Notes under the pieces: model-generated
Databases searched by the model: none
Told to the model about the DNA's origin: nothing
The model's input: the letters and a program-made list of their open reading frames with translations, nothing else
Source of the DNA: Candidatus Saccharimonadota bacterium
GTDB taxonomy: Archaea > Micrarchaeota > Micrarchaeia > Micrarchaeales > Micrarchaeaceae
Assembly (NCBI GenBank): GCA_021654395.1
Contig: AP024486.1
Coordinates: 600,001 to 632,000 of the forward strand
DNA length: 32,000 nt
Direction: 5' to 3'
In this document: positions 3,006 to 29,268 of the stretch, one piece after another
Layout: each line of letters opens with the position of its first letter
Position numbering within the stretch: position 1 is the stretch's first letter
Made by a program: the position numbers and the translations under genes

Positions 3006-3762
3006 TTATTAATTATAATTTCAGTAGCAAACCAGAATGGTGGTTGTAGAAAAACAACTACTGTAGCTAATTTGGGAGCAGTATTAGGTAAAAAATTTAA
3101 GGTATTATTAATAGATACAGACCCGCAGGGAAATTTAACAACATATTTTGGAATTGACAAGAAGAGTGAATATAAAACTATTTATGATGTATTTATCAAT
3201 GGTAATATAGAGGATTCTATAATAAAAAAGGCAATGTAAATATAATACCAAGCACAATAGATTTGGCAGGAGCAGAGATAGAATTAAACGGAAAAATGGG
3301 CAGGGAATACATATTAAAAAAAGAAATTAACAGAATATCTAAAAATTATGATTTTATTATTATTGATACCCCACCAAGTTTAGGTATTTTTTTACAATAA
3401 ATTCATTGGTAGCCTCAGATTATATTATTATACCGGTTCAATCAGAGTCTTTTGCTTTAGAGGGAATGGCACAATTATTAAAGGTAATAAGTTTAGTAAA
3501 ATCAAGATTATCTAATAAACTAAAAGTATTGGGAATATTGTTAACGATGTATAATTCAAATACAAGGTCTTCAAAGGAAGTTTTAAAAGAAGTCAAAAGT
3601 TATTATAAAAAAGAGATTTTTAAAACGATAATACCAAGAAATGTAGCTATTACTGATTCTACTATGGCAGGTTTACCCGTTGTTAATTATAAGAAAGGAG
3701 CTTCAGCTTCAAAATCTTATATTGAATTATCAAAGGAGATTATTAGAAGATTAAAGGTGTAA
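3006..3762 (+). pseudogene. parA: Decayed ParA/Soj-family partition ATPase with two frameshifts, a degenerate Walker A and no canonical start
   Basis: Three frames together read IISVANQNGGCRKTTTVANLGAVLGKKFKVLLIDTDPQGNLT / NVNIIPSTIDLAGAEIEL...YDFIIIDTPPSLGIF / SLVASDYIIIPVQSESFALEGMAQLL...ILLTMYNSNTR...IPRNVAITDSTMAGLPV. The frame changes fall in an A-run (3224-3229) and a T7 run (3385-3391). The deviant Walker A KGGxGKT reads NGGCRKT. A TAA at 3003-3005 precedes the first recognisable codon and no ATG/GTG/TTG follows it. Confidence 0.8.
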
Positions 3763-3764
3763 AA

Positions 3765-4025
3765 ATGGAAAACAAAAAAAGAGGTTTAGACAGTTTAATA
3801 TCGGAAAATTTAGTAGATAATGATGACAAAAAGAAGTATACAAAAACCATTGGTTTTAAAGTAAGTGAAAGGCAGTATGAAACTTATAAAAGATATTCTA
3901 AATATTTTGGAAATAATAATTTATTAAACAAATGGAGAACTGATATTGATAATATTAAAAAGGAAAAAGGCAAAGACTTAGAAAGCATTGAAAATGAAAT
4001 TATTAAAAGATTAAATAAAAATTGA
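3765..4025 (+). CDS. Small ParA partner candidate (ParB N-terminal-peptide-like / ParG-type RHH centromere-binding protein)
   Basis: 86 aa starting 2 nt after the parA remnant, with AAGGTG 8 nt upstream. The N-terminus KKRGLDSLISENL resembles the RGLGxGLdaLi peptide at ParB N-termini. KTIGFKVSERQYETYKRYSKYF has a strand-helix pattern compatible with RHH. Confidence 0.35.
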   Translation: MENKKRGLDSLISENLVDNDDKKKYTKTIGFKVSERQYETYKRYSKYFGNNNLLNKWRTDIDNIKKEKGKDLESIENEIIKRLNKN

Positions 4026-4483: not shown

Positions 4484-6967
4484 ATGAACGAGGCTACCAA
4501 TGAAAATAAAGAATATGATAGAAAATTAATCCTTTTAGAGAATGATTCAGAGCCATCAATACATAAATTAAAAACAATTTTACAAAGTCCATTAGGATTG
4601 GCACAAGAAATTGCTATTAAATGTTTTCAAACAGAGGATAATAAAGGTTTATTATCATATAAAGATGATTTAGATATATTAAAACGGTTAGGGGCAGGTT
4701 TAGAAAGTGCTATGAATAAAAGTGAATACCCAATCGCAAATTATTCCTCTTATATTTTTGCTTTTCAACAATTTATACATAGCTCATATAGGGCACGGCA
4801 AGGAAATTTCGCAGAGAGTGTAATAAGAGCTATTTTAACTGAAGCAAAAAATGTAAAAGTTTATACAAAAAAAGAACATTCGACTATATCGGAAATTGCA
4901 TTAGGCCAAAAACTTGATAATAAACATGATTTAGATGTTATAGCAAGCAGACAAGATGAGTATCTATTTGTGCAAATAAGATCCAGAGATGATACAGGGG
5001 GAACAACAGCAAAAGGTTCATTAGCTGAATTTTTAAGAGATGTGATTAGAGCTCAGATTATTCCTAAACATTCGATAAGGTATGTTATATTTATATGGGT
5101 AGAACTTCAAGCCGCTCAGAAAGTGTCATTAATAAAAAGGATTTCTAATCAATTGTCTGGTTTTTCATCAATCAGTTCAGATGAAATAGAAAAGAAATTA
5201 TTAATGCAAAAAAAAGTTGAATTATTAAAAAACCTGACATTAGAAGTATGCTATGGTTTTAAAGCGTTTTCAGATATTTTAGGTGAATTTTCTGGTAGTG
5301 ATTCTATTGTAGAAATTTCTAATAGGGTTTTTGCAACATTACAGGATTGGGACGACCTTTGGCTTACATATGCATTATCGACAATAGAATTACAGAATTT
5401 AATCATTAAAAAAATTAATAATTTTAAAATTCTTGAAGAGAAATTACACCAACATAATATTGTCTTAAATGAATCGGATCTATCTAACTACAAGAAAAGA
5501 AGTATAGAAATCGCTCATTTATTATTAGAAGATTGGAAAGAAGATACATTACCTGTCAGAAGTCCAAGAGACCAACTATGGTACATTAGAGATTTAATAT
5601 TAGTAAAAATGCTCTCATACCACAATTATAAAAATAATAAAAATGAGAAAATTAAACCAGATAATTCAATAGGAAAAGAAGGTCAGAATTTAGATTTACG
5701 AAACAATAAAGATTATCCAAATCAATTTAAAGTGTCTTTTAGAAACTTATTTAAATCTAGTATACACTCAACAACTTATGCATCCCATGGAATGTATTAT
5801 TATCCCGCTAAATTTATACCTCAAGTAGTTAGATGGGCTATTGAAAGATATACCAAAGAAGGAGACAATATTTTAGATCCATTTGCAGGTTCTGGCACCG
5901 TAGGAGTTGAAGCATTAATTACTAATAGAAATGCTACATGTATTGATTTAAGTCCTATGTTAAAATATCTGTTAGAAGGAAAAACTTATAGAAATGCTTC
6001 TTTAGAAGATTTATTAAATAAAGCTAGGAAAATAATAGAAAATACAAATATTGAATACTTACCTAAATGGTCAAAAATTGAGTATTGGTATCCCAATGAA
6101 ATATATAGTGTTCTTTTAAAAATGTGGAGTGGATACCAAAATTATAAAAATCCTCTTATTTTATTGGCGTTATTAAAGACCTCTAAAAAATTTTCTTATG
6201 CGGATAATGAAGTACCAAAATTGTTTAGATCCAAGAAAAAAATAGAAGAAATTTCTAAATTATTAAAAACGGATTTTGTTAGGACCATACATAACTATTT
6301 TTTAAAAACAGTAGAAGATATGTATAATTATTCTAATGAATTCAACAAACTGTATAAAGGGGGAAAATTAAATATTTTAGATTCAACAGATATGTTAAAT
6401 TATAATTTACAGGAAAAATACGATCTCTTAATAACATCCCCGCCATACGGTCAAGCACATGAATATATTAGAAGTATTAAATTAGAACTTGGGTGGTTAG
6501 GTTATTCTGATGAAGAAATCAGAGAATTAAGTAAGCATGAAATACCATACAATAATGCGGTACCAGATATAACAATAAAATCTGAAACCTATAACCAGTA
6601 TATAAAGAAGATAGATGGAAAAACTAAAAATTATGCTATAACCTATTTTAAATCAATACTTTATATTTTAGATAAATGCATGAACGCTTTAAAACCCTCA
6701 GGAGTTGCTGCTATTTTTGTCGGGAATGCAACATTTTCAGGTATAGAATTTCCATTCTATCAGATATTTAGGGAACATTTTGAAAGTAACGGTTTTCAAT
6801 TTGAGCTATTATTGGAAGATAGAATTGTGGGCAGAAGATTGTTTAAGGGCCGTAAAAATTTATCACCTGCAGGGATTAAATCAGAATATATGTTAGTAAT
6901 GAGAAAAACTTTGTTTAAGCAAGAAATACAAAATTTAACTTTATATGGAACAAAAAAATTGTTTTAA
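4484..6967 (+). CDS. Single-chain fusion of a PD-(D/E)xK (Mrr-like) nuclease-like domain and an N6A/N4C DNA methyltransferase; type IIG/IIC-like RM candidate
   Basis: 827 aa. The N-terminal pattern GNFAESVIRAIL...HDLDVIAS...YLFVQIRSR matches the G-x-x-F-E ... D-x-D ... Q-x-K layout of Mrr-type nucleases, with R in place of K. The C-terminal half carries HGMYYYPAKFIPQVVRWAIERYTKEGDNILDPFAGSGTVGVEAL (AdoMet motif I, DPFxGSGT) and, about 180 aa later, DLLITSPPYG (catalytic motif IV, SPPY). Confidence 0.8.
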   Translation: MNEATNENKEYDRKLILLENDSEPSIHKLKTILQSPLGLAQEIAIKCFQTEDNKGLLSYKDDLDILKRLGAGLESAMNKSEYPIANYSSYIFAFQQFIHSSYRARQGNFAESVIRAILTEAKNVKVYTKKEHSTISEIALGQKLDNKHDLDVIASRQDEYLFVQIRSRDDTGGTTAKGSLAEFLRDVIRAQIIPKHSIRYVIFIWVELQAAQKVSLIKRISNQLSGFSSISSDEIEKKLLMQKKVELLKNLTLEVCYGFKAFSDILGEFSGSDSIVEISNRVFATLQDWDDLWLTYALSTIELQNLIIKKINNFKILEEKLHQHNIVLNESDLSNYKKRSIEIAHLLLEDWKEDTLPVRSPRDQLWYIRDLILVKMLSYHNYKNNKNEKIKPDNSIGKEGQNLDLRNNKDYPNQFKVSFRNLFKSSIHSTTYASHGMYYYPAKFIPQVVRWAIERYTKEGDNILDPFAGSGTVGVEALITNRNATCIDLSPMLKYLLEGKTYRNASLEDLLNKARKIIENTNIEYLPKWSKIEYWYPNEIYSVLLKMWSGYQNYKNPLILLALLKTSKKFSYADNEVPKLFRSKKKIEEISKLLKTDFVRTIHNYFLKTVEDMYNYSNEFNKLYKGGKLNILDSTDMLNYNLQEKYDLLITSPPYGQAHEYIRSIKLELGWLGYSDEEIRELSKHEIPYNNAVPDITIKSETYNQYIKKIDGKTKNYAITYFKSILYILDKCMNALKPSGVAAIFVGNATFSGIEFPFYQIFREHFESNGFQFELLLEDRIVGRRLFKGRKNLSPAGIKSEYMLVMRKTLFKQEIQNLTLYGTKKLF

Positions 6968-7241: not shown

Positions 7242-8338
7242 GTTTACATCCATCTCTGTATGATTTTAGACGTATTATGCAATCAGAGAGTTAAAGAAGC
7301 AATAGATAGTTTACATCCATCTCTGTATGATTTTAGACGTATATATTTCTTAAGCATATCAATATACTCAGGCTCTAGTTTACATCCATCTCTGTATGAT
7401 TTTAGACTGTATTCTAAATGGCTTTCTATGTATTCATAGAAATCGTTTACATCCATCTCTGTATGATTTTAGACCTTCTTCTTTTATGCTTTCTGCTTCT
7501 TTGCTCTCTGGTTTACATCCATCTCTGTATGATTTTAGACCTTCTTCTTTTATGCTTTCTGCTTCTTTGCTCTCTGGTTTACATCCATCTCTGTATGATT
7601 TTAGACTAATTAAAGCAATTCTATTCGTGTAAGAGTCTAGCGTTTACATCCATCTCTGTATGATTTTAGACCGAGAGCAATCCTGTTTGTATAGCTGTCT
7701 AACATAAGTTTACATCCATCTCTGTATGATTTTAGACTAGCATCAAAGAATGTTAAAAGATTTCTTAAAAAGTAGTTTACATCCATCTCTGTATGATTTT
7801 AGACCAGATAAGATAAGACAGTATAAACGCCAATATTCTAGTTTACATCCATCTCTGTATGATTTTAGACTAGTGGTATCATATGTATACATACATGCCA
7901 ATGTAGTTTACATCCATCTCTGTATGATTTTAGACCAAAAGATACATGAGCAAAACCTAAATGATATGGAAGTTTACATCCATCTCTGTATGATTTTAGA
8001 CCTGAAACATTTAGTTTTACTCAAAGTTAATATTAAGTGGGTTTACATCCATCTCTGTATGATTTTAGACTAACTTACGAAATAACAAAAACAAATAAAA
8101 GTTTTTATGAGTTTACATCCATCTCTGTATGATTTTAGACGATAATAACAATGCTAATTCTAATGCTAAGTTTAAAGTTTACATCCATCTCTGTATGATT
8201 TTAGACCTACCAGTACTGCAATTTAAGGCATTTGCTAGATATGTTTACATCCATCTCTGTATGATTTTAGACCAAACTACCATAACACAAACTTACGAAC
8301 CGCAATTAGTTTACATCCATCTCTGTATGATTTTAGAC
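7242..8338. CRISPR. CRISPR array of 17 identical 30-nt repeats and 16 spacers of 35-40 nt
   Basis: The repeat GTTTACATCCATCTCTGTATGATTTTAGAC starts at 7242, 7309, 7378, 7445, 7511, 7577, 7642, 7708, 7775, 7841, 7906, 7972, 8041, 8111, 8177, 8243 and 8309. Spacers 4 (7475-7510) and 5 (7541-7576) are identical. Transcription is probably on the minus strand (see findings). Confidence 0.97.
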
Positions 8339-8930
8339 CCAGCCGCAGCTTCGAATACATTTTTGTAAAACATAATAAAAAATTGCTACAAACCTACTTT
8401 TGTGCAAAGATCCTTATATTATTAATATTTTCATAATATCTAAATACCTTTCGTTTTACTCTATTTCTACTAGATCCTGCATGAAAGCTAATGTAATAAG
8501 TGATATACTATAAATTATAATATTATAATACCTCATTGTATTTGTATTTTTTTATATTAAATAAATCTCTTTAATAAGAATACAAGTTTCGAGAGTGATA
8601 CCTAGCTAATGTAATCTATAAGATATAATCTAATATTATTAATGGATAGAAAGAATATATATAATTAAAAATCTTAAGCAAGTTTTACTAATAAAAGTAA
8701 AGCAGGTCTTATATTAAATTAAAAGAGGCGATTAAGTTAAATTTTTTATATTTATTTTGTATTTTGAATAGAGCAAATCGAATTAAATTAAAATAGAAAT
8801 AGATCTGGCTATCTTGAGACAATAAATTAATCTGTTTTTGCTATCTTTAATTTAGTATTCTTTACGTTATAATAAGCTTTATAAAAATTATATCATAAAT
8901 TATATTTAAATTTATAATATGTGCTAATCT
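8339..8930 (-). promoter_or_regulatory. Putative CRISPR leader, if the array is read on the minus strand
   Basis: About 590 bp of very AT-rich sequence with no ORF abuts the repeat end that would be leader-proximal. The only degenerate repeat (2868) lies at the opposite end. Confidence 0.3.
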
Positions 8931-9628
8931 ATGAGTGATTCTAAGCTTGATATAAATCCTTTTGTTCCTCCAAACTTTAGAGAGGAGCTTAAAGATTATT
9001 TAACCGAAATAATAAAAAGAAAAAACGAGTATGATAAAAGAGCATATTTTAAATCTAAGGTTTTAGAAGGATGGCTTAAGATATCTCCAGATCTTATCTA
9101 CTTTGAAAAAGATAGAAAAGATCTATATTATGCAGGTATACTGTTCGAAACTAAGAGTGAACTTTCAGATGCTAAGAGAAAAGTAGCATTTGAAGAACTT
9201 AAAAATTATATAGAAGATCTGTTGAAAAAAGGAGGAAATGTATTTAAAGTTATAATAACAGATGGTGTATAGTTTGAGCTATATGATACTAACGATATAC
9301 TAAATTATAATGAAGATAGAAAAGATAGCTATCAAAAGCTATTAAGCAAAAGAAAATTTCTTATTAACTGACTTTGGAAATAGGCCTGAAGAGGCATACT
9401 ATCTATGTGGTATCTTAAATAGTAAAGTCACTATAGATAAATTTAGAAAAAGTGGAATTAAATCAGAAAGGCAATACAGAAAAAATCTTCGAGATTGGAA
9501 TTCCAGAATATAATGAAAAGAATAAACTTCATAATAAGATTGCAGAATATGCAATGAAATATAAAATGACTAAAGATGAAAAATTATTAGAGAAGATAGA
9601 TGAATTAGTAGAAGAGCTCTTAAAATAG
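8931..9628 (+). pseudogene. Remnant of a type IIG restriction-modification enzyme: the N-terminal nuclease domain is joined to a C-terminal fragment and the methyltransferase core is deleted
   Basis: The N-terminal 113 aa have a PD-ExK-like layout (KDLYYAGILFETKSE ... VIITDGV). An in-frame TAG at 9270-9272 is followed by FELYD, matching the usual TnGxxWxLy pattern. From 9360 the sequence reads EEAYYLCGILNSKVTIDKF and, after a frameshift, KIFEIGIPEYNEKNKLHNKIAEYAMKY...LVEELLK*, typical of the C-terminus of Eco57I/MmeI-like enzymes. Only about 0.7 kb remains of what is normally a gene of about 3 kb. Confidence 0.65.
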
Positions 9629-9784
9629 AACTTATAAATTCCAGTTATAAATACGCTTAAGCAATTTGCTATTTTATTATATGCAGATAGAGATCTTCTT
9701 GCATCCTTAGATAAAATCTAACAGATTACTTAACTTACTTCAAATAAGCTTTATAAAAGCCATCATTTATAAAAATTTAATATT

Positions 9785-9808
9785 TCTAATAATTATTTAG
9801 ATAATCTA
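9785..9808. repeat. Copy A of a 24-nt motif, TCTAATAATWATNTAGATAATCTA
   Basis: Reads tctaataattatttagataatcta and contains the palindrome TAGATAATCTA. An inverted near-copy, tagattatctt, lies at 9818-9828. Confidence 0.7.
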
Positions 9809-10409
9809 TATAATTTTTAGATTATCTTATCTTAATAAGGCATATTAATTAAAATTAAATCTAAAGAAAAGACCTTTATATCAGATTAGCTTAAAGGCTA
9901 TTTAACATATGGTGATTAGAATGACAACGCATGTAAATGCAATAGAACCAGAAGATTTTGAATATATGGGTTAGTAAAGAAGACATAGAAGAAACTAATA
10001 GAAAGCTAGAAGCTGAAAATAAAAAGAAAGAAAATACTGAAATAAGAGATGAAAATCCAGCACCAATACGCTGTGAGCAATAAAGTTAGATCTATAAGTT
10101 AACATTTTATCTTTTTGTTTTTTTAAACATAAAGCTTTTATATCTAGTCTGCGCTTAGTTAATAGATCCATGGTGAGAGATATGGTGAATGTAGAACTTG
10201 CTAGCGAATATGTACCAGAAAAGGTAGATAATCAGGCAAAAGGAGAGGTACCAAAATTTATGGGTAAGCATAAGGGCCGTTTTGAAAGAGATTATCTTAG
10301 AGGAATGGAGTAAAGGGTTTACTTTTTTCTTGTTTTATTATTTGAGTAACAATGTGGTTTAAAAAGTTACTAAAATAAGGATTATTTAAAATAAGAATTA
10401 CAAAACACT

Positions 10410-10658
10410 TTTCATTTTTATGAAAGTCAAAATTAAAGCATATGCTAAAAATTAAGTTTCATTTTTATGAAATTAGCAATTTGCAAGAAATTGCATTTTC
10501 TTCCATATTTTTGAAAAATGGCTTGTTTTAGCAAAATGATCATTATTGCTCCGAAAAAGCATATCAAAAGATATGCTTTTCTCAGGCATCTTAAGATCTA
10601 TTCCATTTTTATGAAAATCTATGATCATAAGCTACTAATCTATTCCATTTTTATGAAA
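10410..10658. promoter_or_regulatory. Cluster of 16-bp palindromic boxes TTYCATTTTTATGAAA: four good copies and one degenerate copy
   Basis: Copies at 10410-10425, 10457-10472, 10601-10616 and 10643-10658; the degenerate copy is near 10501-10520. The half-sites TTTCAT/ATGAAA are inverted around TTTT. The last two copies share the 21-nt atctattccatttttatgaaa. Extra hairpins are gcaatttgcaagaaattgc (10476-10494) and aaaagcatatcaaaagatatgctttt (about 10555-10580). Confidence 0.6.
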
Positions 10659-10854
10659 GCATTAATAGAAGATCATGTAAGTACTAAAATTTAAGTTTAA
10701 TCTAACAAATGATAAGATATTCTAAAATTATCTTAGTATAATCTTTGCTATAATTTTTAATAAACAAGTAAGCTATCTGGAGGAAATTTTGCTATAAAAT
10801 TATATAAAGAAAAGTATTTTATTAATTCTGATATATTGCATATTTGTGGGTTTT

Positions 10855-11025
10855 ATGGTAGATAAGCAAGAAAGCATGGATTATAAGGGAGATACTAAAG
10901 CGCTGGTAGATGCTGCTCCAGAGTTATATGATCTGCTCGAGGAATTGCTAAAAAGGCTCGGAGAGATAATTGAAGATCAATCTAAAGGATATGCGAAAGA
11001 GAATAGCAAAATTAGAAATGATTAG
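10855..11025 (+). CDS. Possible small ORF (56 aa), function unknown
   Basis: Reads MVDKQESMDYKGDTKALVDAAPELYDLLEELLKRLGEIIEDQSKGYAKENSKIRND. It is below the ORF-track length threshold and its composition is protein-like, but nothing else supports it. Confidence 0.2.
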   Translation: MVDKQESMDYKGDTKALVDAAPELYDLLEELLKRLGEIIEDQSKGYAKENSKIRND

Positions 11026-11086
11026 TCTGAAATATTTAAGCTAGTAATAATATTAAAGTTAAAATATGTAAAAGGTTAATTTAATA

Positions 11087-11110
11087 TCTAATAATATATT
11101 AGATAATCTA
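11087..11110. repeat. Copy B of the 24-nt TCTAATAAT...TAGATAATCTA motif
   Basis: Reads tctaataatatattagataatcta, followed by aaattttattaaat, which is similar to the sequence after copy C. Confidence 0.7.
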
Positions 11111-11173
11111 AAATTTTATTAAATCTTTACAATCAAATAATGTTAATATTTTCTTAATCTAGTATATATTGAT

Positions 11174-11197
11174 TCTAATAATTATCTAGATAATCTA
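11174..11197. repeat. Copy C of the 24-nt TCTAATAAT...TAGATAATCTA motif
   Basis: Reads tctaataattatctagataatcta, followed by acaatttattaaat. It lies just 3' of the stop of the minus-strand ORF 11221-12261. Confidence 0.7.
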
Positions 11198-11220
11198 ACA
11201 ATTTATTAAATAAAAGAGCT

Positions 11221-17223: not shown

Positions 17224-18249
17224 TTAATGTATATACATATTTACGTCGTATAACTTTCCAACTTTAAACTTAAGCTCTCTGCCTTTCTCTAATCTTTCTT
17301 TAACAATATCATAGAAATACTCCAATCTTATTGATCTTCTATATATTGTAACACCATGCACTAATGTAACTCCGCCGAAATGATAGTTGAATGTTATAAC
17401 ATTGTTCTTCTTACTTACTGTAGATCTAACGTAATCTTTATACTTATTCCAAAATCCTGTATTTGCTCTACCTTTAATAAATGCAAGATATCTTATAGTT
17501 GACTCTACAGCCCAATCCTCTATAGATTTAGATCTACTTGCATATAACTTTACTGCTTCACTAAAAGAGCTTGTATTATAATCATAGTATAGCGTTTTAT
17601 AAGACTCTTTGAACTCTTCTGTATTCTTAAAGCTTTCTAAGTTATTGCGGTATTCATCAACTAATCTACTAAACTCTTCATTAAATCCTTCAAGATTGTC
17701 TAATAATCCTTTAAGATTTAAGAGCTCTATGTGATTCATATTGAATTCTTTTATTAGCTTTGCAGTAGTATCGAGCGCTCTTTTACTATTATCAAAAGGC
17801 TTTCTTAAAACATTTGCATCGAAAAATTCGTTTTCATATGCTATAACTAATCTGCTTTCTTTACCTGTTATCTGCTCTGCAAAAGACGCAAACTTATTAA
17901 GTCTATTAAGTAAGGCCAACCATGAGAGATCTATATTATTAAATGGTGTCTCAATTGGATTGCCTGATTTGCCTATATAAAGCAATAGCATAAACCTTAG
18001 CTTATCTCTTTTAGTAAGATCTTCTTCAAGCCTTTTAATATCTCCTTCAAATTCAACGAATCTATTTCTCATTAGCTCTTCTATGTTTTTTGGCTCGCTT
18101 TTAAATATTCTTTTTATATCACTCTCAAGAATCTTATCTACTTTTTCTTTATCTAATTCCTCATATTCAAATTCTATCTTAGCATCTGCTACACTCTCTT
18201 CAAATTCATATCTAAACGAACCTATCTCAGGTATTACTCTATCTTTCAA
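17224..18249 (-). CDS. Hypothetical protein (341 aa), shorter member of the GGVTxVHGV paralogue pair
   Basis: Shares ordered blocks with the adjacent 488-aa ORF: LLLYIGKSGNP...LSWLALLNRL, RLVIAYENEFFD and VITFNYHFGGVTLVHGVTIY. It may be remotely similar to the DIT1/PvcA family, but this is unverified. Confidence 0.65.
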   Translation of the reverse strand: MKDRVIPEIGSFRYEFEESVADAKIEFEYEELDKEKVDKILESDIKRIFKSEPKNIEELMRNRFVEFEGDIKRLEEDLTKRDKLRFMLLLYIGKSGNPIETPFNNIDLSWLALLNRLNKFASFAEQITGKESRLVIAYENEFFDANVLRKPFDNSKRALDTTAKLIKEFNMNHIELLNLKGLLDNLEGFNEEFSRLVDEYRNNLESFKNTEEFKESYKTLYYDYNTSSFSEAVKLYASRSKSIEDWAVESTIRYLAFIKGRANTGFWNKYKDYVRSTVSKKNNVITFNYHFGGVTLVHGVTIYRRSIRLEYFYDIVKERLEKGRELKFKVGKLYDVNMYIH

Positions 18250-18331: not shown

Positions 18332-19798
18332 TTATCTGTTTAAGGTATCTTTGATTGCATCCATAAATCTACGCTCATCTTCTAAATCCTTTCTTATAGC
18401 TATCATAATATTTTCTATATTACTATTACCTGGCTCTTTAGGATAAGTTTTTGACGCTTTCATAATTATGCGCTTAATGTCTTCTACTGTTATTTCTTTA
18501 GGCTCCCTTATAGATATTAAATAGCCTATTGTGTCTCCTTCTTCATCTTCTATAGCATATAGATATCTACCTATGTGCTTGTCTTTGCTCATCTTTTCAA
18601 TGTTTGATTCAGGTAATATATACAATGCTCTTTCTGGATCTAAATTAGGAGTATCCATTAACAGCGCAACACCATGAACAGGTGTTACGCCACCATATGG
18701 GCTTCTATATATTAGCTTATTCTGGTCTTTTTTAGAAGTTAAAGACATTTTAAAGTAATCAGTAGGATATCCTCCTCTTGCATCCATTCTTGCTTTGTGC
18801 TTTATTGTAACTTCTATAATCTTATTTATATCTAAATCTGGATTAGATCTAGCAAGAGCCCTTATTAAATAACTTAACTCTTTTAATACCTCAATTTTAG
18901 TCTTACCATTATAAATCTTTTCATCATCTCGTACATTATAAGCCCCTACATCTATTCTATCTTTTACTATATCAATTAGTAACTCGTAATTTTCGTATAC
19001 TAACTTATTTAATAACTTTTCATTCTCTTCTGCTTTATTGATATCAACTATCTCCATACCATCTTTTATCTCTAAATTCATATCTAACCTTTTTGCTTGC
19101 TCTAAAAACTTTTCTCTATAATATTTTGCAGACTCTTTACTAACAAAATAAGTAAGCGTAGTTTCATCGTATATAACTATTGGTATCTCCATTGCCTTTA
19201 ATCTAGAAAGGAATAACCACTCTGCAATTCCAGGAGAGTTATGTTTTGAAGCACCCCTTCCGCCTTTACTAACAAATAGATAAAATGCGACTTTATTTAA
19301 TCTACCTGTTAATGATGCAAGTAATACTGAAGCGAGTACATCTTTTTGGTTTACAATTATCCATCTATTTAATATTCTTGCTGCCTTTTCAACGATCTCC
19401 TCTTCTCTTTTGTTATTTGCAAGCTCTTGCACCTTTTTTGATATTTCTTCTGCTTTTTTGTTTATACGCTTTTCAATGCTACTTAGACTTTTTCTCTCAT
19501 TATTCTGCTTTGCTTTTAAATATGATTCCTGTAGAGCCTCAATTTCAGCATCTCCAAGATAGTAACTTAAAATATGTGGTGTATTAGAATCCTCCTTTTT
19601 AATCATTGCAGCTAATGCATTTGGATCCTTCAGCTTGTTCAATAAATCCTTTAGCTTGCTTTCTATACTTTTATCTTCTGTTGGCTCAATATTTCTAATA
19701 AATTCTAGGATTTTATCTGAATTAACCTTTATCTTTTTAATTAAATTATAGCTGCTTTGTAGTTGTTTATCTCTTTCAATATTGCTCAATCTCACCAC
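18332..19798 (-). CDS. Hypothetical protein (488 aa), longer member of the GGVTxVHGV paralogue pair, with an N-terminal coiled-coil extension
   Basis: Blocks FYLFVSKGGRGASKHNSPGIAEWLFLSRL, IPIVIYDETT and LIYRSPYGGVTPVHGVALL are collinear with those of the 341-aa neighbour. Confidence 0.7.
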   Translation of the reverse strand: MVRLSNIERDKQLQSSYNLIKKIKVNSDKILEFIRNIEPTEDKSIESKLKDLLNKLKDPNALAAMIKKEDSNTPHILSYYLGDAEIEALQESYLKAKQNNERKSLSSIEKRINKKAEEISKKVQELANNKREEEIVEKAARILNRWIIVNQKDVLASVLLASLTGRLNKVAFYLFVSKGGRGASKHNSPGIAEWLFLSRLKAMEIPIVIYDETTLTYFVSKESAKYYREKFLEQAKRLDMNLEIKDGMEIVDINKAEENEKLLNKLVYENYELLIDIVKDRIDVGAYNVRDDEKIYNGKTKIEVLKELSYLIRALARSNPDLDINKIIEVTIKHKARMDARGGYPTDYFKMSLTSKKDQNKLIYRSPYGGVTPVHGVALLMDTPNLDPERALYILPESNIEKMSKDKHIGRYLYAIEDEEGDTIGYLISIREPKEITVEDIKRIIMKASKTYPKEPGNSNIENIMIAIRKDLEDERRFMDAIKDTLNR

Positions 19799-20048: not shown

Positions 20049-21137
20049 ATGAACTCATCTAAAGATAAGGACTTTGACCGATTATTAAATATTAGTTTCG
20101 ATGCCGCCATAGATGAGATAAAAAGCAGTATACTTGTATTAAACAATTATGATAACTTAAAAAGGTTTGAATTTAAATTTAGCTATGAAGATGATAAGAT
20201 AAAGTTTATTATAATAGACAAGGAGCTGAAAAAGGAGCACGGGCTAAAATTCAGCAAAGAGGAGCTTAAAGCAACCTCCAAGATAATTAGTAAAATAGAT
20301 AGTATGGAAATGGTTTTATTTAATGCTTTAAATAAAGATGTAGAATCTAGTAACTACGAAAATCTACAAGAATTATATTTAGATATAGTTTCGTCTTTAA
20401 TTATAATCCATAAAGTCGATGAAGAATTTAAGAATCTAGAAAAGTCATGCAAAGATGAAGAATTGAATAAACTTAAAGAGTTGAAGAGAAAGCTTATAGA
20501 AAAAATTAAGAGCGGTCCAGAAAAGCCAGAAACAGAAAGTATTAAATCATATATAAGATCAATATCTGATGCAAAAGGAGAGCTAAAGGAGGCTATTAAA
20601 GATATATTAAAAGTTCATCATGATGAAGATCTAGAAAATTTTATTAATAGCATTGACAATATAGATCAAATTAATCAAGAATCTAAAAGTAGCGAATCTA
20701 ATATATATAAGGACAAAGAAGATAAAGCCATTTATATACTAAAGTACTTACTTTCATATAGTATAATTAAATTTATATCACAAACTCTTAAGCCGCAAGA
20801 CAAGCTTAATATTGTAAACTCTTATCTCTTGTTTATATCAAAGATGTATATAGCGCAGCTTAAAGGGGATATAAGTATTGCTGAACATTTTTTAGACATA
20901 CTCGAAGCAATTGATTTAGCTATTATATATGAAGACGAATTTGAAAGTAATAAAAAAGATAAGATAGATAAGAACAGTTTACTTATATATGCGGCCTATT
21001 TTCCATCGAAGTTAATTAAATTGTTAGATTTAGAGAATAAAGATAAGATAAATATATTCTATAATTTTTCTGAAAGCGATATAAATAATATAAAAGCATT
21101 GATAGATAATGAGATAGTTAAAAATCTAACTGAATAA
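20049..21137 (+). CDS. Hypothetical protein (362 aa), paralogue of the ORF at 27781-28902
   Basis: Full-length collinear similarity to the 373-aa ORF. Examples: SIKSYIRSISDAKGELKEAIKDI / SIRSYIDNISRARKDLILYIKEI; NSYLLFISKMYI / MAYLLFTTKMRI; AIDLAIIYEDEFE / DINLILVYETFKE. Confidence 0.65.
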   Translation: MNSSKDKDFDRLLNISFDAAIDEIKSSILVLNNYDNLKRFEFKFSYEDDKIKFIIIDKELKKEHGLKFSKEELKATSKIISKIDSMEMVLFNALNKDVESSNYENLQELYLDIVSSLIIIHKVDEEFKNLEKSCKDEELNKLKELKRKLIEKIKSGPEKPETESIKSYIRSISDAKGELKEAIKDILKVHHDEDLENFINSIDNIDQINQESKSSESNIYKDKEDKAIYILKYLLSYSIIKFISQTLKPQDKLNIVNSYLLFISKMYIAQLKGDISIAEHFLDILEAIDLAIIYEDEFESNKKDKIDKNSLLIYAAYFPSKLIKLLDLENKDKINIFYNFSESDINNIKALIDNEIVKNLTE

Positions 21138-22501: not shown

Positions 22502-23077
22502 ATGGGTTTGCTTTTTTATATAGGTATCTGAATAGTAGCAATTATAGTAATAATAGCGGCCATATTTATAATAATATACAACTCATTGGTTGCATTAAAG
22601 AAGAATGTAGATAAGTCCTGGGCTAATATAGACGTTCTTTTGCAGAAGATGCATAATACATTAACAAAGCTTATAGATACAGTAAGCGCATACGCAAAGT
22701 ATGAAAAGAGCGTACTAACGCAGATCACTCAGCTTAGGACTCAATGGATTAACATACCACAAGATGATATAAAGGCAAAGATAGATAATGCTAATCAAGT
22801 ATCTGCAGCACTTAAGTCTCTATTTGCTGTTGCTGAAAACTATCCAGATCTAAAAGCAGATAATAACTTTATGCAGCTACAGCAGACAATACTCTAGTTA
22901 GAGTCACAGATTGCAGATGCAATAGAGTATTACAACAATAGCGTGACTTTATTTAATACAAAGATGCATCAGATACCATATAACACATTTGCAGGTATGC
23001 TTGGATATAAGGATATGCCATTATATCAGCCACCACCAGAGGAGAAGCAAGACGTTCAGATGAATTTTAACATATAG
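22502..23077 (+). pseudogene. lemA: LemA-family protein gene interrupted by two in-frame stop codons
   Basis: A single frame reads MGLLFYIGI*IVAIIVIIAAIFIIIYNSLVALKKNVDKSWANIDVLLQK...FAVAENYPDLKADNNFMQLQQTIL*LESQIADAIEYYNNSVTLFNTKMHQIPYNTFAGMLGYK...*. The internal stops are TGA at 22529-22531 and TAG at 22895-22897. There is no frameshift. Confidence 0.85.
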
Positions 23078-23282: not shown

Positions 23283-23696
23283 TTATAAATTAGAGCTATT
23301 AATTATATCTTTAAGCTCATCTTCTAAATATTTATCTATATGCTTTATTCCATAATACCCTACTACTCTGCTTTTTGAGATATCAATACTGCCAATAGAT
23401 CTACCTATTCCACGTTTCAGAGCTCCTGCATTAATATTACTTAGATGAAATTCATAAAAATAGATATCTCCTATAGCCTTTTGATTATCATATCTTATCC
23501 TCTCTATAGCTATCACATAGATTGTTTTATCTTCTGGCCTCTTACTAAACTCGAACAAAGCCCTTCTATCTTCAACTAGATAATTTATGAAGAATAGACC
23601 TTTTCCTTCTATATAACTCTTCAAATTATCAAATATCTTCTTAACAGACTCTTTAGTACTTTCATATATATCTTCATCTTTGCTCCTTTGGACCAT
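23283..23696 (-). CDS. Hypothetical small protein (137 aa), paralogue of the ORF at 26152-26688, divergent from the FtsZ-like gene
   Basis: Alignable with the 178-aa ORF: EDKTIYVIAIERIRYDNQKAIGDIYFYEF...IGSIDISKSRVVGYYGIKH versus SEDTIFHAFAIEDIKYIGKGLVGDFRIYEY...IASIDGRVVKRYGQIKF. Confidence 0.6.
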   Translation of the reverse strand: MVQRSKDEDIYESTKESVKKIFDNLKSYIEGKGLFFINYLVEDRRALFEFSKRPEDKTIYVIAIERIRYDNQKAIGDIYFYEFHLSNINAGALKRGIGRSIGSIDISKSRVVGYYGIKHIDKYLEDELKDIINSSNL

Positions 23697-23880
23697 AGAA
23701 TTTGATTACAAGCTCAGATTTTAAAATATATAAATATTTTCTCTAGTTTTTATATTTGATATCCATCTAGAAGATCTAAATATTATTCTATTAATTTCAA
23801 TATTAACTCCAGCTAAATCTTTAGATATATTATAATTCAGTAATGTTTTTAAGAATTAATTCCTTAAAGAGGATGATTAA

Positions 23881-24570
23881 ATGAAGAATGAAGACGAGTT
23901 AATTAATCATATATTTGGATACAAAGCAGATTCGGCAGATGGGTTTGTAATAGGATTAGGAAATACTGGATGCATGATAGCAGATGAGCTTCTAAAGATC
24001 AGCGATAACGATTACACAAGGAAGTATATTAAAGTTATAGAGTTAGATTCGAGTAAAGACTTTAAAGAGTATGAAGATGAACGACTTTTAAGAAAGCTTA
24101 TAGGAAAGGAGATACTTTATGACAAAGATGCTTATCTATCTGATTTTAGAGAGAACAAGCATCATACTGCTAACCCTAGATATGGTGAAGATGCAATCAA
24201 GAAGGAGAAAGAGCTTATATTAGCTCTTATAGATAGATATAAGCCAAGAGTCTTACTTATTATATCTGCCTTTGGCGGTAGCGTGGGGACTGGTGCAACA
24301 ACAGAGCTAGTTAAGTATATAAAGGCTAGGGATATTATGACTATAGGTCTAATAGTGCTTCCTTTTAAGTTTGAAAGAGAGAGAAGAGCGATAGCAGAGA
24401 GGGCATTAGATGATATTAAGAGCTACTTTGATAATATACTAACAGTAGATCTAAATAGATTTATAAATCTAGATGAAGAAGCAACCTTAAATATGACAAT
24501 GAAGCATATAGATAGAAGTATCGCAAGAATTGCAGAGAGCATCTTAACTCTTTATTCAAGACAGGTATAA
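23881..24570 (+). CDS. FtsZ/tubulin-superfamily protein with the N-terminal GTP-binding domain only (229 aa)
   Basis: Collinear with the FtsZ N-domain. FVIGLGNTGCMIADEL aligns with the G-box GxGGAGxN. NPRYGEDAIKKEKELILALI...VLLIISAFGGSVGTGATTELVKYIKA aligns with NPxiGxxAAee...ggGGGTGTGaaPviA, the tubulin signature, here GGSVGTG. TIGLIVLPFKFERERRAIAERALDDIKSYFDNILTV aligns with tvgvVTxPFxfEGxxRxxxAxxGixxLxxxvDtlivi. The protein ends just after the H7-like helix, with no T7 loop. AGAGGATGA lies 5-13 nt upstream of the ATG. Confidence 0.8.
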   Translation: MKNEDELINHIFGYKADSADGFVIGLGNTGCMIADELLKISDNDYTRKYIKVIELDSSKDFKEYEDERLLRKLIGKEILYDKDAYLSDFRENKHHTANPRYGEDAIKKEKELILALIDRYKPRVLLIISAFGGSVGTGATTELVKYIKARDIMTIGLIVLPFKFERERRAIAERALDDIKSYFDNILTVDLNRFINLDEEATLNMTMKHIDRSIARIAESILTLYSRQV

Positions 24571-24802
24571 TTTCTAATCAAAGCATAGTTTAAAGTCCTA
24601 AAGATCTAAACCTAATATTAATATGAGAGCTTATATCTTTTATTTAAGGCCTTAATAAGTTTAATATATACTATATAAAAATAATTCTTGTAAATAGCTA
24701 TCAATAAATTACTGGCTTTTTATTGTTAGAGGTTCCTATAGTCGGATAAAGTTAAAAAAATTTAAATATCAGTTTTGATTATTAAGATTATAAGATCGAT
24801 AA

Positions 24803-25951
24803 ATGAACAGGAATCTAGAGCCAATAAATATAGCAGAAGAGCGCGATATCTCAAGTCAGAATCCATGCGTTAGAAATATCTCAATTATATTACACCTTGA
24901 TAGATCTTACTTCGAAGCCTATAGATATATAAATCATACTGATGGGCATAAGACAAGAGAGCAGAATGAGGATCTAAAGGAGAAGATATCTCTATTATAT
25001 AATAGTATTAGAGATCCTAAGGTAGTAATCACATCGTTAGAAGAGGCTATCCTTGACTCTATAGGTGAAGCAACAGGCTACTCTGGAAATTATGAAAGAT
25101 GCTATAAGATATATGATAGCGTAAGGTTAGAGATAAGCGATAAACAACTAAATCCAGTTAGCTATCTACGCGATCGTTCAAGCATATACATATATCTAGA
25201 TCCAGGTACTATATTACAAGATATAATAAGTGATCCTAAATCTTCATCTACAGTCTTTTTCAAGTATAGCTTCTATAGTATACTTAAAAAAGCAGTATAC
25301 AATAATATAACAGATAGAATAAAAGCGATATTTATATTTGATACATTAAATGCTAAGGCTGATAAGAGCAGAAAGGAGCTAAAATTAGAAGGCTATATTA
25401 AAAAAGCAGAGGTTTCATACAATATATTCAAGATTATACTAAATGGAGTAATGGGCAATATTGACTCCCCTGGAGAGGCCTTTCTAAATAGATATACTGC
25501 TGATCTACATGCTATAAATGAAAGATTAAATAGTAGAAGATATAAGAAGCAGTTTAAGAAAGCTATAAATCATATCAGACTTAAACTGCTTGAGAAAGAT
25601 TTAGATATAAGAGATGAAGCTTTAGATAAAGATGTAATTAACGATGCGTTAATTGCTGTATCAACAGCATTTGTACTTTCTAATCTTATGGATAGATATA
25701 CTTTAAGCTCTGAGGAATTAAGAAAAGAGGTAGTAGTTCGCACATATGATGAAGTGCATAAAAATATGTTAAATAAGCTTACGGATCTTAGATATATATC
25801 TGATTTTGTTATAATGCGCACTAGCTATAAGTCAATAATAAGAGTTATAAAGTTACTGAGCTCGAAGGACAGACATATTAAGCCAAATACATTTAAGAAT
25901 AAGTTAATGAAGATCTTCAAGATCTTTATCAAGATCTTTAGATTAAGATAA
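24803..25951 (+). CDS. Hypothetical protein (382 aa) with a C-terminal basic amphipathic helix, a putative membrane-targeting sequence
   Basis: Long ORF 232 nt downstream of the FtsZ-like gene on the same strand. The C-terminus FKNKLMKIFKIFIKIFRLR places K/R every 3-4 residues between I/F/L/M residues. Confidence 0.6.
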   Translation: MNRNLEPINIAEERDISSQNPCVRNISIILHLDRSYFEAYRYINHTDGHKTREQNEDLKEKISLLYNSIRDPKVVITSLEEAILDSIGEATGYSGNYERCYKIYDSVRLEISDKQLNPVSYLRDRSSIYIYLDPGTILQDIISDPKSSSTVFFKYSFYSILKKAVYNNITDRIKAIFIFDTLNAKADKSRKELKLEGYIKKAEVSYNIFKIILNGVMGNIDSPGEAFLNRYTADLHAINERLNSRRYKKQFKKAINHIRLKLLEKDLDIRDEALDKDVINDALIAVSTAFVLSNLMDRYTLSSEELRKEVVVRTYDEVHKNMLNKLTDLRYISDFVIMRTSYKSIIRVIKLLSSKDRHIKPNTFKNKLMKIFKIFIKIFRLR

Positions 25952-26151
25952 CTGCTATCAAGGCTAAGGTATAATTGATAGTATAATTAAGCAGAAGCTT
26001 TATATATAAGATAGATATCTTTTTTCATATTAAGATTTAGTAGATATATAGAAGACATTTACTATAAATTAAAGACTGAAAGAAATCTAAAGATATAAAT
26101 GTAGATCTTATTAAGAACAAACTCTATATAAACTCTACTTACTCTATTATG

Positions 26152-26688
26152 CTATCTATCATTATTATCCTCTCGAATTTGACTAAAATCTTTTTTTAGA
26201 TTATGAGCCATCTCTTCATAGTCGCTAAGCATTTGATTAAGCATCTTAATAAATTTTTTTCCCCCAAACTTTATCTGACCATACCTTTTGACGACTCTTC
26301 CATCTATACTTGCAATTCCTGAACTCATGCATCTCTCTACTTCCTTGGTAACGACACCCCTTGATAGATTATTTAGATCGTCAGCCTTTAAACCATCTAT
26401 GGAGTACTCATAGATCCTAAAATCTCCAACTAGGCCTTTGCCAATATACTTAATATCTTCAATCGCAAATGCATGGAATATAGTATCCTCTGATTTCTCA
26501 GCAAACTTTATAAGAATTCTACCTCCATTTTTATTTAGCTCAACATTGAGCTTTACATAGCTATAGCCCTTATTTTTCATAAAATCTACAAACTGCTCAG
26601 CTTGTTTTCTAATTTTATTTAGCTCAATATTGAGCTTTACATAGCTATTCTCATCTTCAGGTATATTACTATCTTTATCTATATTCAT
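26152..26688 (-). CDS. Hypothetical protein (178 aa), paralogue of the ORF at 23283-23696, with an internal duplication
   Basis: See the paralogue alignment under 23283-23696. The N-terminal SYVKLN(I/V)ELNK is duplicated, encoded by 34-nt direct repeats at 26531-26564 and 26615-26648. Confidence 0.6.
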   Translation of the reverse strand: MNIDKDSNIPEDENSYVKLNIELNKIRKQAEQFVDFMKNKGYSYVKLNVELNKNGGRILIKFAEKSEDTIFHAFAIEDIKYIGKGLVGDFRIYEYSIDGLKADDLNNLSRGVVTKEVERCMSSGIASIDGRVVKRYGQIKFGGKKFIKMLNQMLSDYEEMAHNLKKDFSQIREDNNDR

Positions 26689-27780: not shown

Positions 27781-28902
27781 ATGGACAGAAGGAAGCAGAA
27801 TTCTGGAAATAGCACCAAAATAAACGCTTTAAAGGCTGCACTTACTCAGACACTAGAGCTTTTCAGGGAGTCTCTGAAAGGATCAGGTCTTAAGGTATCA
27901 TTATCTGAAGGTAGAGAAGCTAATAATTTAGGAGTAATCATAGATAACAATGAATATGTAATAGCTGATAGCCAAAAAACATTAATAAGTAATGCAAAGA
28001 GTATAGATAGATTACTGACCATGCAGGCGATCTTTGCTCTAACCATTAGCGGAATTGATGAAAAGAAGTACTTCTCCTTTTTAGATACTTATAATGAAGT
28101 GATAGCAGGATGCTTATCAATTTATACTGCAGTTAAGTTTATCGACCCCATCTTAAAAGCTAAATACGGCGCTGAGTATTCGAACAAGCTTATGGATAAA
28201 GCTAATAATCTAATGAATAATATTAATAATACTCCAAGTAGCTTAGATAATATAAGTATAAGATCTTATATAGATAATATCTCTAGAGCTAGAAAAGATC
28301 TTATTCTTTATATTAAAGAGATAAAAGATATGGATGAGGGAATAGCATATTGGTTTGAGATTATAGGGGTTTTAAATAAGGAAGATAGAAAGGATAATAG
28401 TATAAAGCTAGATAAAGATAAAAGTGCTGACTCTAAAGTAGCAGATTCAAATGATAGCTTTGTATTAGGCAGCAAAGATACTAAGCCAAAGCAGAATATC
28501 AAGCTAATAAAGAGCTTTACAGCTTACCTATTATTTAAGTCTATATTTAGCTCTAATAATACTACAATAAGAGATTATGATGAAGATCTATCTTATATCA
28601 TGGCTTATCTTCTATTTACAACAAAGATGAGAATAAATAGTGTCAAAGATTTAGACTTAGCAAGCCTTATTGAATCTAATGTAGATGATATTAATCTAAT
28701 ACTAGTATATGAGACATTTAAAGAGGAAGGACAAGAAGATGTAAATAGAGATAAGATAGTAGAAGAGGCGATAAGATATCTTCCGAAGATTCTAGATATA
28801 CTATACGGAAAAGATATAACGAAAATAGATGCATTATTGGATCTAGATGAAGAATCTTTTAAGCGTATAAATGAAGAGATAGATAAATCATATCAGATAT
28901 AG
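27781..28902 (+). CDS. Hypothetical protein (373 aa), paralogue of the ORF at 20049-21137
   Basis: Collinear similarity as listed for 20049-21137. It has a low-complexity D/K/S-rich linker in the middle. Confidence 0.65.
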   Translation: MDRRKQNSGNSTKINALKAALTQTLELFRESLKGSGLKVSLSEGREANNLGVIIDNNEYVIADSQKTLISNAKSIDRLLTMQAIFALTISGIDEKKYFSFLDTYNEVIAGCLSIYTAVKFIDPILKAKYGAEYSNKLMDKANNLMNNINNTPSSLDNISIRSYIDNISRARKDLILYIKEIKDMDEGIAYWFEIIGVLNKEDRKDNSIKLDKDKSADSKVADSNDSFVLGSKDTKPKQNIKLIKSFTAYLLFKSIFSSNNTTIRDYDEDLSYIMAYLLFTTKMRINSVKDLDLASLIESNVDDINLILVYETFKEEGQEDVNRDKIVEEAIRYLPKILDILYGKDITKIDALLDLDEESFKRINEEIDKSYQI

Positions 28903-29064: not shown

Positions 29065-29268
29065 TTGAACAGCAGCAAGGATAAAGATATGAGTATTCGG
29101 ATTACAGATATCTATATTATATACCACTTCCTGGTCTTAATTAGAGACTCTAAGCATAATAAGAAGAAGAGAATCTTAGATAAGTACAGAAAACAGCTAC
29201 TATCTATATCTAAAGATATGAGACCTGAAGAGGTAGTAAATACTATAATACCAGCATATAGAGCTTAG
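29065..29268 (+). CDS. Doubtful small ORF (67 aa, TTG start), possibly a fragment of a third 20049-type paralogue
   Basis: The N-terminal NSSKDKD is identical to residues 2-8 of the 20049 ORF but is encoded by different codons. The rest is dissimilar. A 10-bp-stem hairpin follows. Confidence 0.2.
   Translation: MNSSKDKDMSIRITDIYIIYHFLVLIRDSKHNKKKRILDKYRKQLLSISKDMRPEEVVNTIIPAYRA

Follow-up and report, generated by a model that had tools for sequence, protein, structure and literature searches.

The stretch of DNA analysed here, 32,000 nucleotides of contig AP024486.1 (positions 600,001 to 632,000; hereafter the window), contains a gene, ARM1_0651, whose 229-amino-acid (aa) product matches the N-terminal GTPase domain of the tubulin-family protein FtsZ and ends where that domain ends. 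The source genome is that of the cultivated DPANN archaeon ARM-1 (Candidatus Micrarchaeota archaeon), and ARM1_0651 lies among three orphan genes, ARM1_0650, ARM1_0652 and ARM1_0653. We conclude that this half-FtsZ is real, an unusual form of a known protein, and that the region around it is lineage-specific and evolves fast. Our favoured reading, to which we assign a probability of roughly one half, is that orphan genes specific to the ARM-1 lineage form a patch here around a truncated, strongly diverged FtsZ paralogue, with no demonstrable conserved four-gene module. ARM1_0651 itself appears to be a selected but neofunctionalised N-domain-only FtsZ paralogue, the ancestral GTPase function of which has probably been relaxed or changed. 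The module of four genes that a first-pass annotation of this DNA had proposed is, in our assessment, a conjecture. The elements of the locus, in window positions, are the following.

23283..23696, minus strand: ARM1_0650, small paralogue B1, 137 aa (open reading frame, ORF)
23697..23880, no strand: divergent intergenic region of 184 bp between ARM1_0650 and the FtsZ-like gene (read from the sequence)
23881..24570, plus strand: ARM1_0651, FtsZ N-terminal GTPase domain only, 229 aa (ORF, Pfam PF00091)
24571..24802, no strand: spacer of 232 bp between the FtsZ-like gene and the 382-aa gene (read from the sequence)
24803..25951, plus strand: ARM1_0652, orphan, 382 aa (ORF)
25889..25948, plus strand: C-terminal cationic amphipathic helix of ARM1_0652, residues 363-382, TFKNKLMKIFKIFIKIFRLR (hydrophobic moment)
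26152..26688, minus strand: ARM1_0653, small paralogue B2, 178 aa (ORF)

The half-FtsZ and the three genes around it

Proteins of the locus were compared with four libraries of hidden Markov models (Pfam, NCBIfam, PADLOC and PHROGs), with PDB sequences and with the Foldseek fold libraries; in addition, ∼5.8 billion proteins were searched by word index and 1.84 billion cluster representatives exhaustively by HMMER. The sole Pfam match of ARM1_0651 was to the Tubulin family PF00091 (1.2e-14; residues 23-195; 55.5 bits, the cut-off being 33), and Pfam returned no match to the FtsZ C-terminal domain, FtsZ_C (PF12327). Against the NCBIfam FtsZ equivalog TIGR00065 the protein scored 54.1 bits, under the cut-off of 295.2. 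The best match to an FtsZ in the PDB (4.6e-11) covered residues 97-224, and the solved FtsZ structures align with ARM1_0651 only to about residue 190 of those chains. In an alignment with 13 FtsZ-family proteins, from which the motifs were read, ARM1_0651 breaks off as soon as helix H7 is complete, immediately short of the NxDxxD motif of T7 with which the C-terminal domain begins. T7, C-terminal domain, linker and C-terminal peptide are all missing, and the earlier description of the gene as half an FtsZ is borne out.

Like canonical FtsZ (archaeal FtsZ1/FtsZ2; PF00091 plus PF12327; TIGR00065), ARM1_0651 has a Rossmann-like N-terminal GTPase domain in which T1, T4, T5, T6 and H7 can be recognised; unlike it, the protein is without the T7 catalytic loop, C-terminal domain, linker and anchor-binding peptide and has lost T3. 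T1 (GLGNTGCM) retains two glycines, its Asn being replaced by Met, and T4 reads GGSVGTG, with Thr replaced by Val; each of these motifs carries two substitutions relative to canonical FtsZ. The GAG of T3 has given way to an insertion of ∼11 residues. Retained are T5 (PFKFE), Asn191 of T6 and the conserved Asp of H7. In the alignment ARM1_0651 has neither the tubulin signature GGGTG(S/T)G nor the T1 motif GGGGxN. This anatomy predicts a protein that would not be a self-activated GTPase and would not form a canonical GTP-hydrolysing homopolymer; a canonical polymer is excluded because T7 and the C-terminal domain are missing. SepF-type anchors bind the FtsZ linker and tail, and both are missing from ARM1_0651. 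Helix H7 is strongly amphipathic (hydrophobic moment 0.66), and its hydrophobic face normally packs against the FtsZ C-terminal domain. Judged from the sequence, this face would be exposed in ARM1_0651, and a partner that covers it is conceivable.

We found no missing half of FtsZ elsewhere in the window by tblastn with ∼150 FtsZs, nor any FtsZ-like coding remnant in the 232-bp spacer by the same method. The idea that a neighbour supplies the C-terminal domain in trans was rejected, as an hhalign comparison of the domain profile gave probabilities of 1.4% with the small paralogues and 0.1% with the 382-aa protein. The identity of ARM1_0651 to every FtsZ is ∼23-35%. In the HMMER search of the 1.84 billion representatives the only match below 1e-30 was the query itself, generic FtsZs following from E = 3.7e-16, and no orthologue was present among them.

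In spite of this divergence the reading frame is intact. At the base composition of the window a random codon is a stop with probability 0.082, so that a stop-free run of 229 codons would arise by chance in about 3e-9 of cases; across the window, 20 ORFs of ≥137 codons were observed against 0.055 expected per shuffled window (200 shuffles). All four ORFs were found where the first-pass annotation had placed them, at lengths far above the shuffled-window expectation. Since they are intact at 29% G+C (8% stop codons) despite deep divergence, we take them to be protein-coding genes under selection and not relics. The neighbouring LemA gene (22502-23077, plus strand) provides an internal comparison. 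A complete domain (PF04011 positions 1-149, 145 bits) results only from reading through two in-frame stops, TGA at 22529 and TAG at 22895. Because the same 103-aa LemA fragment is also called in an independent, Illumina-only Logan assembly (run DRR248898), where the FtsZ-like protein is likewise encoded on a contig, the stops are not due to sequencing error and LemA became a pseudogene recently; the LemA reported to the left of the locus is therefore present as a domain but not as an intact gene. That LemA at 145 bits already has two stops, whereas the far more diverged ARM1_0651 is intact, leads us to infer selection on the coding sequence. The argument extends to both small paralogues, which are intact at 28% identity.

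The first-pass annotation had described the two plus-strand genes as co-oriented and bracketed by minus-strand genes, and the ORF map agrees. The orientations run - + + -, and the genes are separated by 184 bp (divergent), 232 bp (co-oriented) and 200 bp (convergent). A Shine-Dalgarno-like GAGG lies 8-11 nt upstream of the ARM1_0651 ATG, and the 184-bp divergent region is a putative promoter site. The 232-bp spacer holds a T5 tract (24717-24721) and a TTTAAATA box (24761-24768), the latter ∼35 nt upstream of the ARM1_0652 ATG; if these act as terminator and promoter, they suggest that ARM1_0651 and ARM1_0652 are transcribed separately. ARM1_0650 to ARM1_0653 do not have the same-strand, tightly spaced arrangement of an operon. 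With this orientation and spacers of 184-232 bp, three transcription units are the minimum, and the layout of the genes speaks against a single operon.

The 137-aa and 178-aa proteins had been called diverged paralogues of each other, and the comparisons corroborate this (BLASTP E = 3e-9, 28% identity over 115 residues; match recovered in both directions by tblastn). A profile of the family, run against the ∼5.8 billion proteins, retrieved exactly two members, both at this locus. ARM1_0653 carries an internal direct duplication with a period of 84 nt (26524-26564 and 26608-26648, 41 nt, 93% identity), which repeats the peptide SYVKLN(I/V)ELNK near the N-terminus and accounts for part of the difference in length from the 137-aa paralogue. 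Local duplication and rearrangement are the simplest explanation for paralogues on both sides.

An AlphaFold2 model of ARM1_0650, built from the two-sequence alignment, reached moderate confidence (predicted local distance difference test [pLDDT] 74, predicted template modelling score [pTM] 0.70). The modelled fold is alpha+beta: a 29-residue helix at the N-terminus is followed by six antiparallel strands and by a helix at the C-terminus. At E ≤ 0.001 Foldseek matched it to nothing in the PDB or BFVD. A weak topological resemblance to p32/Mam33 was discarded (TM-scores < 0.3). SepF, MglB/roadblock, profilin and TubR had been named as possible remote relatives of this family, and none was detected in Pfam, NCBIfam or Foldseek. 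SepF (PF04472) gave no Pfam or NCBIfam match at E ≤ 0.1 and was absent from the Foldseek PDB matches; the roadblock family Robl_LC7 had no Pfam match, was absent from the Foldseek matches and differs from the model in the order of secondary-structure elements. For profilin there was no Pfam match and no entry in the Foldseek PDB list, and the order helix-antiparallel sheet-helix in ∼137 aa recalls it. A TubR-like fold was not matched by Foldseek, and the model is not a winged helix-turn-helix. One further candidate relative, a 319-aa protein encoded next to a short FtsZ of a metagenomic cluster (P0132, see below) by a gene divergent from it, matched the 137-aa protein at a pairwise E = 1e-4. 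It was rejected, as it is a YdcK/hexapeptide beta-solenoid repeat protein that the 178-aa paralogue does not match.

ARM1_0652 is basic (isoelectric point 9.4), predicted to be mostly alpha-helical and without a transmembrane (TM) segment. Among the ∼5.8 billion proteins it matched only itself, and its single-sequence AlphaFold2 model (pLDDT 36) was unusable. The amphipathic helix ascribed to it is there: the 18-mer TFKNKLMKIFKIFIKIFR (residues 363-380) has a hydrophobic moment of 0.66, the highest in the protein and among the top 0.23% of values for the 18-mers of the window's proteins. In the C-terminal helix given in the list above a K or R recurs every 3-4 residues. This helix is a plausible candidate for a membrane-targeting sequence of the MinD/FtsA type. 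The observation that none of the three partners belongs to a recognisable family also stands: the 137-, 178- and 382-aa proteins had nothing significant in Pfam, NCBIfam, PADLOC, PHROGs or PDB sequences, nor was a family recognised by Foldseek. Matches of the neighbours to well-characterised, unrelated families were looked for, and none was found.

Outside the locus, six-frame pattern scans of IMG/VR and the JGI metagenomes yielded no relatives of the locus proteins, and tblastn against 50,697 phage and 72,556 plasmid records gave no match. We further used the adjacent DUF72 gene as a synteny anchor in 185,579 species genomes, a collection that excludes ARM-1 itself. It led to 19 loci, the best of them, at 34% identity, in a Micrarchaeota metagenome-assembled genome; apart from DUF72, none of the 19 encodes a homologue of a window protein. 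None of the four proteins had an orthologue with which the gene set could be compared across genomes, and by these data ARM-1 appears phylogenetically isolated among present-day sequences.

Possible function and rival explanations

In an FtsZ filament the active site at the nucleotide of each subunit is completed by the T7 loop of the preceding one, and incoming monomers add via their GTP-bound top surface to the T7-exposing bottom, the growing end; bottom-interface FtsZ mutants are toxic, MciZ caps the growing end, and G72 and N25 have roles relevant to GTP binding and docking (PMC8936486). Cappers act at the C-terminal polymerisation interface, which is called the plus end (PMC9897490). ARM1_0651, as we read it, would present the nucleotide ('top') face and lack the 'bottom' face. 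It could then attach to a canonical FtsZ filament at its growing, T7-exposing end and leave no site for a further subunit, so that growth of the filament would end; ARM1_0652 could bring it to the membrane via its C-terminal helix. This role as a growing-end capper is in our view the likeliest mechanism for ARM1_0651, but it is proposed by analogy, and we hold it to be tentative and on balance doubtful. Fixed-length N-domain-only FtsZ proteins elsewhere that end at the same point speak for the viability of such an architecture.

MciZ, SulA and MipZ, as well as the bottom-interface FtsZ mutants, are alike in the predicted functional logic only, namely growth termination at the T7-exposing end. 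The three cappers are unrelated proteins and bind the bottom face, and the toxic mutants are full-length FtsZ. ARC3, the N-terminal part of which has been described as FtsZ-like, would be a precedent for an inhibitor of FtsZ that derives from a degenerate FtsZ domain; this eukaryotic protein has several domains, a MORN domain among them, and no relation to ARM1_0651 can be detected in its sequence. In plant chloroplasts ARC3 is a negative regulator of Z-ring assembly and a MinC analogue whose sequence similarity is low (PMC13650779).

Several points weigh against our reading of the locus and of ARM1_0651. The lack of homologues is absence of evidence, and a real lineage-specific module would look alike. 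GTP binding and docking are uncertain because the top face is degenerate (T3 GAG lost, T1 Asn to Met, T4 Thr to Val), and other window proteins hold internal amphipathic 18-mers with moments equal to or higher than that of the ARM1_0652 helix. The listing of minD, ftsZ and sepF for ARM-1 is given without locus tags (PMC8784108), and the NCBI label 'cell division protein FtsZ' sits on ARM1_0651 itself. The proteomics supplement of PMC11329633 contains host proteins only.

The first-pass proposal, that the four genes form one membrane-associated cytoskeletal, partition or membrane-remodelling system with the half-FtsZ as polymer or switch, ARM1_0652 as anchor and the paralogues as adaptors, seems to us unlikely. 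It would account for the way in which the sole two members of a small family bracket the FtsZ-like/382-aa pair, for the resemblance of the cationic amphipathic helix of the 382-aa protein to a membrane-targeting sequence and for an amphipathic H7 that may need a covering partner, and it has a parallel in N-domain-only FtsZ genes elsewhere that directly adjoin small membrane-protein genes. The neighbours of those genes are nevertheless unrelated to the ones in ARM-1, the paralogues are without similarity to SepF, roadblock, profilin or TubR, and three or more transcription units with long spacers do not suit a single system. No co-conservation is available in its favour, and where T7 and the C-terminal domain are missing a canonical polymer cannot form. 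The indirect evidence for it is on the whole lukewarm to negative, the candidate membrane-binding helix of ARM1_0652 being the one part that fits.

It is also improbable, in our estimate, that the half-FtsZ is a non-functional relic, that is, a second FtsZ paralogue that lost its 3' half in a decaying region among unrelated, lineage-specific neighbours. Decay is evident nearby, in the LemA pseudogene with its two in-frame stops and in a ParA gene broken by two frameshifts; coding sequence makes up only ∼70% of the window, the motifs for GTP binding have degenerated, and in NCBIfam the protein scores 54, short of the FtsZ cut-off of 295. A relic would hardly be expected, however, to keep an ORF open over 229 codons (random chance ∼3e-9) at ∼23-35% identity to every FtsZ, when the decaying LemA still scores 145 bits with two stops. 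The point of truncation coincides exactly with the domain boundary at which independent families of short FtsZ proteins end, tblastn detects no 3' remnant, and a Shine-Dalgarno-like GAGG precedes the start codon.

A mobile-element cassette remnant, with a TubZ-like partition GTPase and its adaptors in an AT-rich island, is very improbable. In its favour, the window is AT-rich relative to the genome, carries a CRISPR (clustered regularly interspaced short palindromic repeats) array, a type II DNA methyltransferase, a decayed parA with a ParB-like start and a CopG/RHH (ribbon-helix-helix) gene, and yields a weak PDB match of ARM1_0651 to the TubZ-like RepX (E = 3.2e-4), but FtsZ structures score far better (4.6e-11), the phage and plasmid records and IMG/VR contain no match, the small-paralogue model is not a winged helix-turn-helix, no iteron-like repeats adjoin the ARM1_0651 gene, no integrase or tRNA gene lies in the window, and TubZ proteins have both domains. 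The PADLOC and PHROGs searches, too, found nothing that points to a defence or mobile-element origin. The type III partition systems of plasmids and phages (TubZRC) resemble the locus in having a tubulin-superfamily GTPase next to small proteins, and in the RepX similarity just mentioned. They differ in their two-domain TubZ with a C-terminal tail, in a winged-helix TubR encoded in the same operon and in centromeric iterons, none of which was found at the ARM-1 locus.

Genome and surrounding region

ARM-1 is a thermoacidophilic DPANN archaeon with Metallosphaera sp. AS-7 as its co-culture partner; its genome has 814,439 bp, 849 coding sequences and 34.1% G+C, and each cultivated Micrarchaeota genome has 311-324 unique genes (PMC8784108). 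With ∼29% G+C the window is more AT-rich than the genome, and the sum of its ORFs gives a coding share of ∼70%. We consider it a variable, partly decaying region rich in lineage-specific genes, a reading consistent with the low coding share, the ∼29% G+C and an ORF-poor stretch described below. A 394-aa membrane protein in the window had been labelled GIDE-like; Pfam gave no GIDE (PF12483) match even at E ≤ 10, and the label is unsupported.

At the left side of the window, a ParA/Soj-type partition ATPase (3015-3762) is broken by two frameshifts (frames 0, 2, 1), its Walker A region reading NQNGGCRKTT. A 92-aa ORF (3765-4022) follows it and starts with MENKKRGLDSLI, which resembles a ParB N-terminus; the two probably represent a parAB pair in decay. 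An 827-aa protein (4484-6967, plus strand), encoded between this parA and the CRISPR array, has a C-terminal type II N6/N4 DNA methyltransferase domain and, besides this, a long, unassigned N-terminal half. The array (7242-8338) consists of 17 identical 30-nt repeats, GTTTACATCCATCTCTGTATGATTTTAGAC, with spacers of 35-40 nt, and a lone degenerate repeat lies 4.3 kb upstream of it (2868-2897). No recognisable cas genes were found in the window. The ∼2.9 kb downstream of the array (8339-11220) contain only short fragments and no ORF >113 aa, and the ORFs downstream of the array (346, 267, 857, 181, 341 and 488 aa) matched nothing in PADLOC, Pfam or NCBIfam. A CopG/RHH gene is also present in the window.

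Local paralogy is not confined to the small proteins. Two orphans of 362 aa (20049-21137, plus strand) and 373 aa (27781-28902, plus strand) share 24% identity (E = 1e-6). They flank the small paralogues on their outer sides, in an order and orientation unlike a simple tandem or inverted segmental duplication. A relation of the 382-aa ARM1_0652 product to this pair was rejected (probability 0.05%). A 67-aa ORF (29065-29268, plus strand) begins with the same eight residues as the 362-aa protein, MNSSKDKD, in different codons. Two adjacent orphans of 341 aa (17224-18249, minus strand) and 488 aa (18332-19798, minus strand) share ∼56 residues at 36% identity (E = 4e-4), which suggests another local paralogous family.

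N-domain-only FtsZ proteins elsewhere and their significance

Short FtsZ proteins also form clusters of constant length across metagenome samples: P0132 has 14 members of 242 aa, P0012 has 3 of 201 aa, and P0092 proteins have 222/223 aa. In the alignment all three end after H7, at the same point as ARM1_0651. P0012 is the best full-length single-domain match to ARM1_0651 (35% identity by phmmer, 32% by BLASTP), and P0132 shares with it the ∼11-residue insertion at the T3 position; the GTP motifs of the metagenomic proteins are more canonical than those of ARM1_0651. A common family is not established, because the identity of 23-35% between ARM1_0651 and the short FtsZs is no closer than that to some full-length FtsZs. 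A further cluster, P0004, with a 199-aa 'short FtsZ', was discarded as an artefact of a frameshifted bacterial dcw cluster.

The loci of the 242-aa and 201-aa short FtsZ proteins are the following.

L002, 9671-10729
L003, 8256-9317
L004, 254-1315
L005, 441-1857

At each of them the short FtsZ gene lies within ∼50 bp downstream of a small membrane-protein gene. The partner is a 93-94-aa protein with two TM segments at L002-L004 and, at L005, a 113-aa protein with a TM segment and a zinc ribbon, where a Sel1-repeat gene follows the FtsZ gene. None of these neighbours is related to those in ARM-1. The pairing of a mini-FtsZ with a membrane partner may be recurrent.

FtsZl1 is a divergent FtsZ N-domain without the canonical C-terminal domain, for which membrane remodelling together with neighbouring genes has been proposed (PMC2875224). 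ARM1_0651 resembles it (Makarova and Koonin 2010) in this respect. FtsZl1 proteins, in contrast, are ∼1000 aa long, include a coiled coil as well as a helical C-domain, belong to Tubulin_2 (PF13809) and are accompanied by vWA, GTPase and OmpA genes (PMC2875224), whereas ARM1_0651 has 229 aa, matches PF00091, retains T6-H7 and has no vWA, GTPase or OmpA neighbours. As it has no Tubulin_2 match, it is not an FtsZl1 (PMC2875224, PMC9871819). A literature search found no paper describing N-domain-only FtsZ proteins.

A broader proposal would unite ARM1_0651, P0132, P0092 and P0012, from uncultivated and DPANN lineages, in a recurrent class of the tubulin superfamily that has escaped recognition. 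Each mini-FtsZ would work with an adjacent membrane-associated partner (in ARM-1, ARM1_0652 and the small paralogues), either as a membrane-tethered FtsZ capper or regulator or as a minimal non-canonical polymer. We regard this as a long shot. In its extreme form, ARM1_0651 would be the sole tubulin-family gene and ARM-1 would divide with half an FtsZ.

If ARM1_0651 is merely one of 300-odd lineage-specific genes, the locus illustrates how a decaying, fast-evolving region can come to resemble an operon-like design through local duplication. It would be more notable if ARM-1 had no other FtsZ, or if the pattern of a mini-FtsZ with a membrane partner were general. An FtsZ cut to its nucleotide-binding half is a natural experiment on the roles of the two FtsZ domains, and as ARM-1 is among the few cultivated DPANN archaea, its genes are open to study in co-culture. 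Known archaeal division regulators are limited to SepF, MinD-like and CdpB-type factors. If active, ARM1_0651 would be a filament-end capper that is genetically encoded and stems from FtsZ itself, and a new kind of archaeal division regulator.

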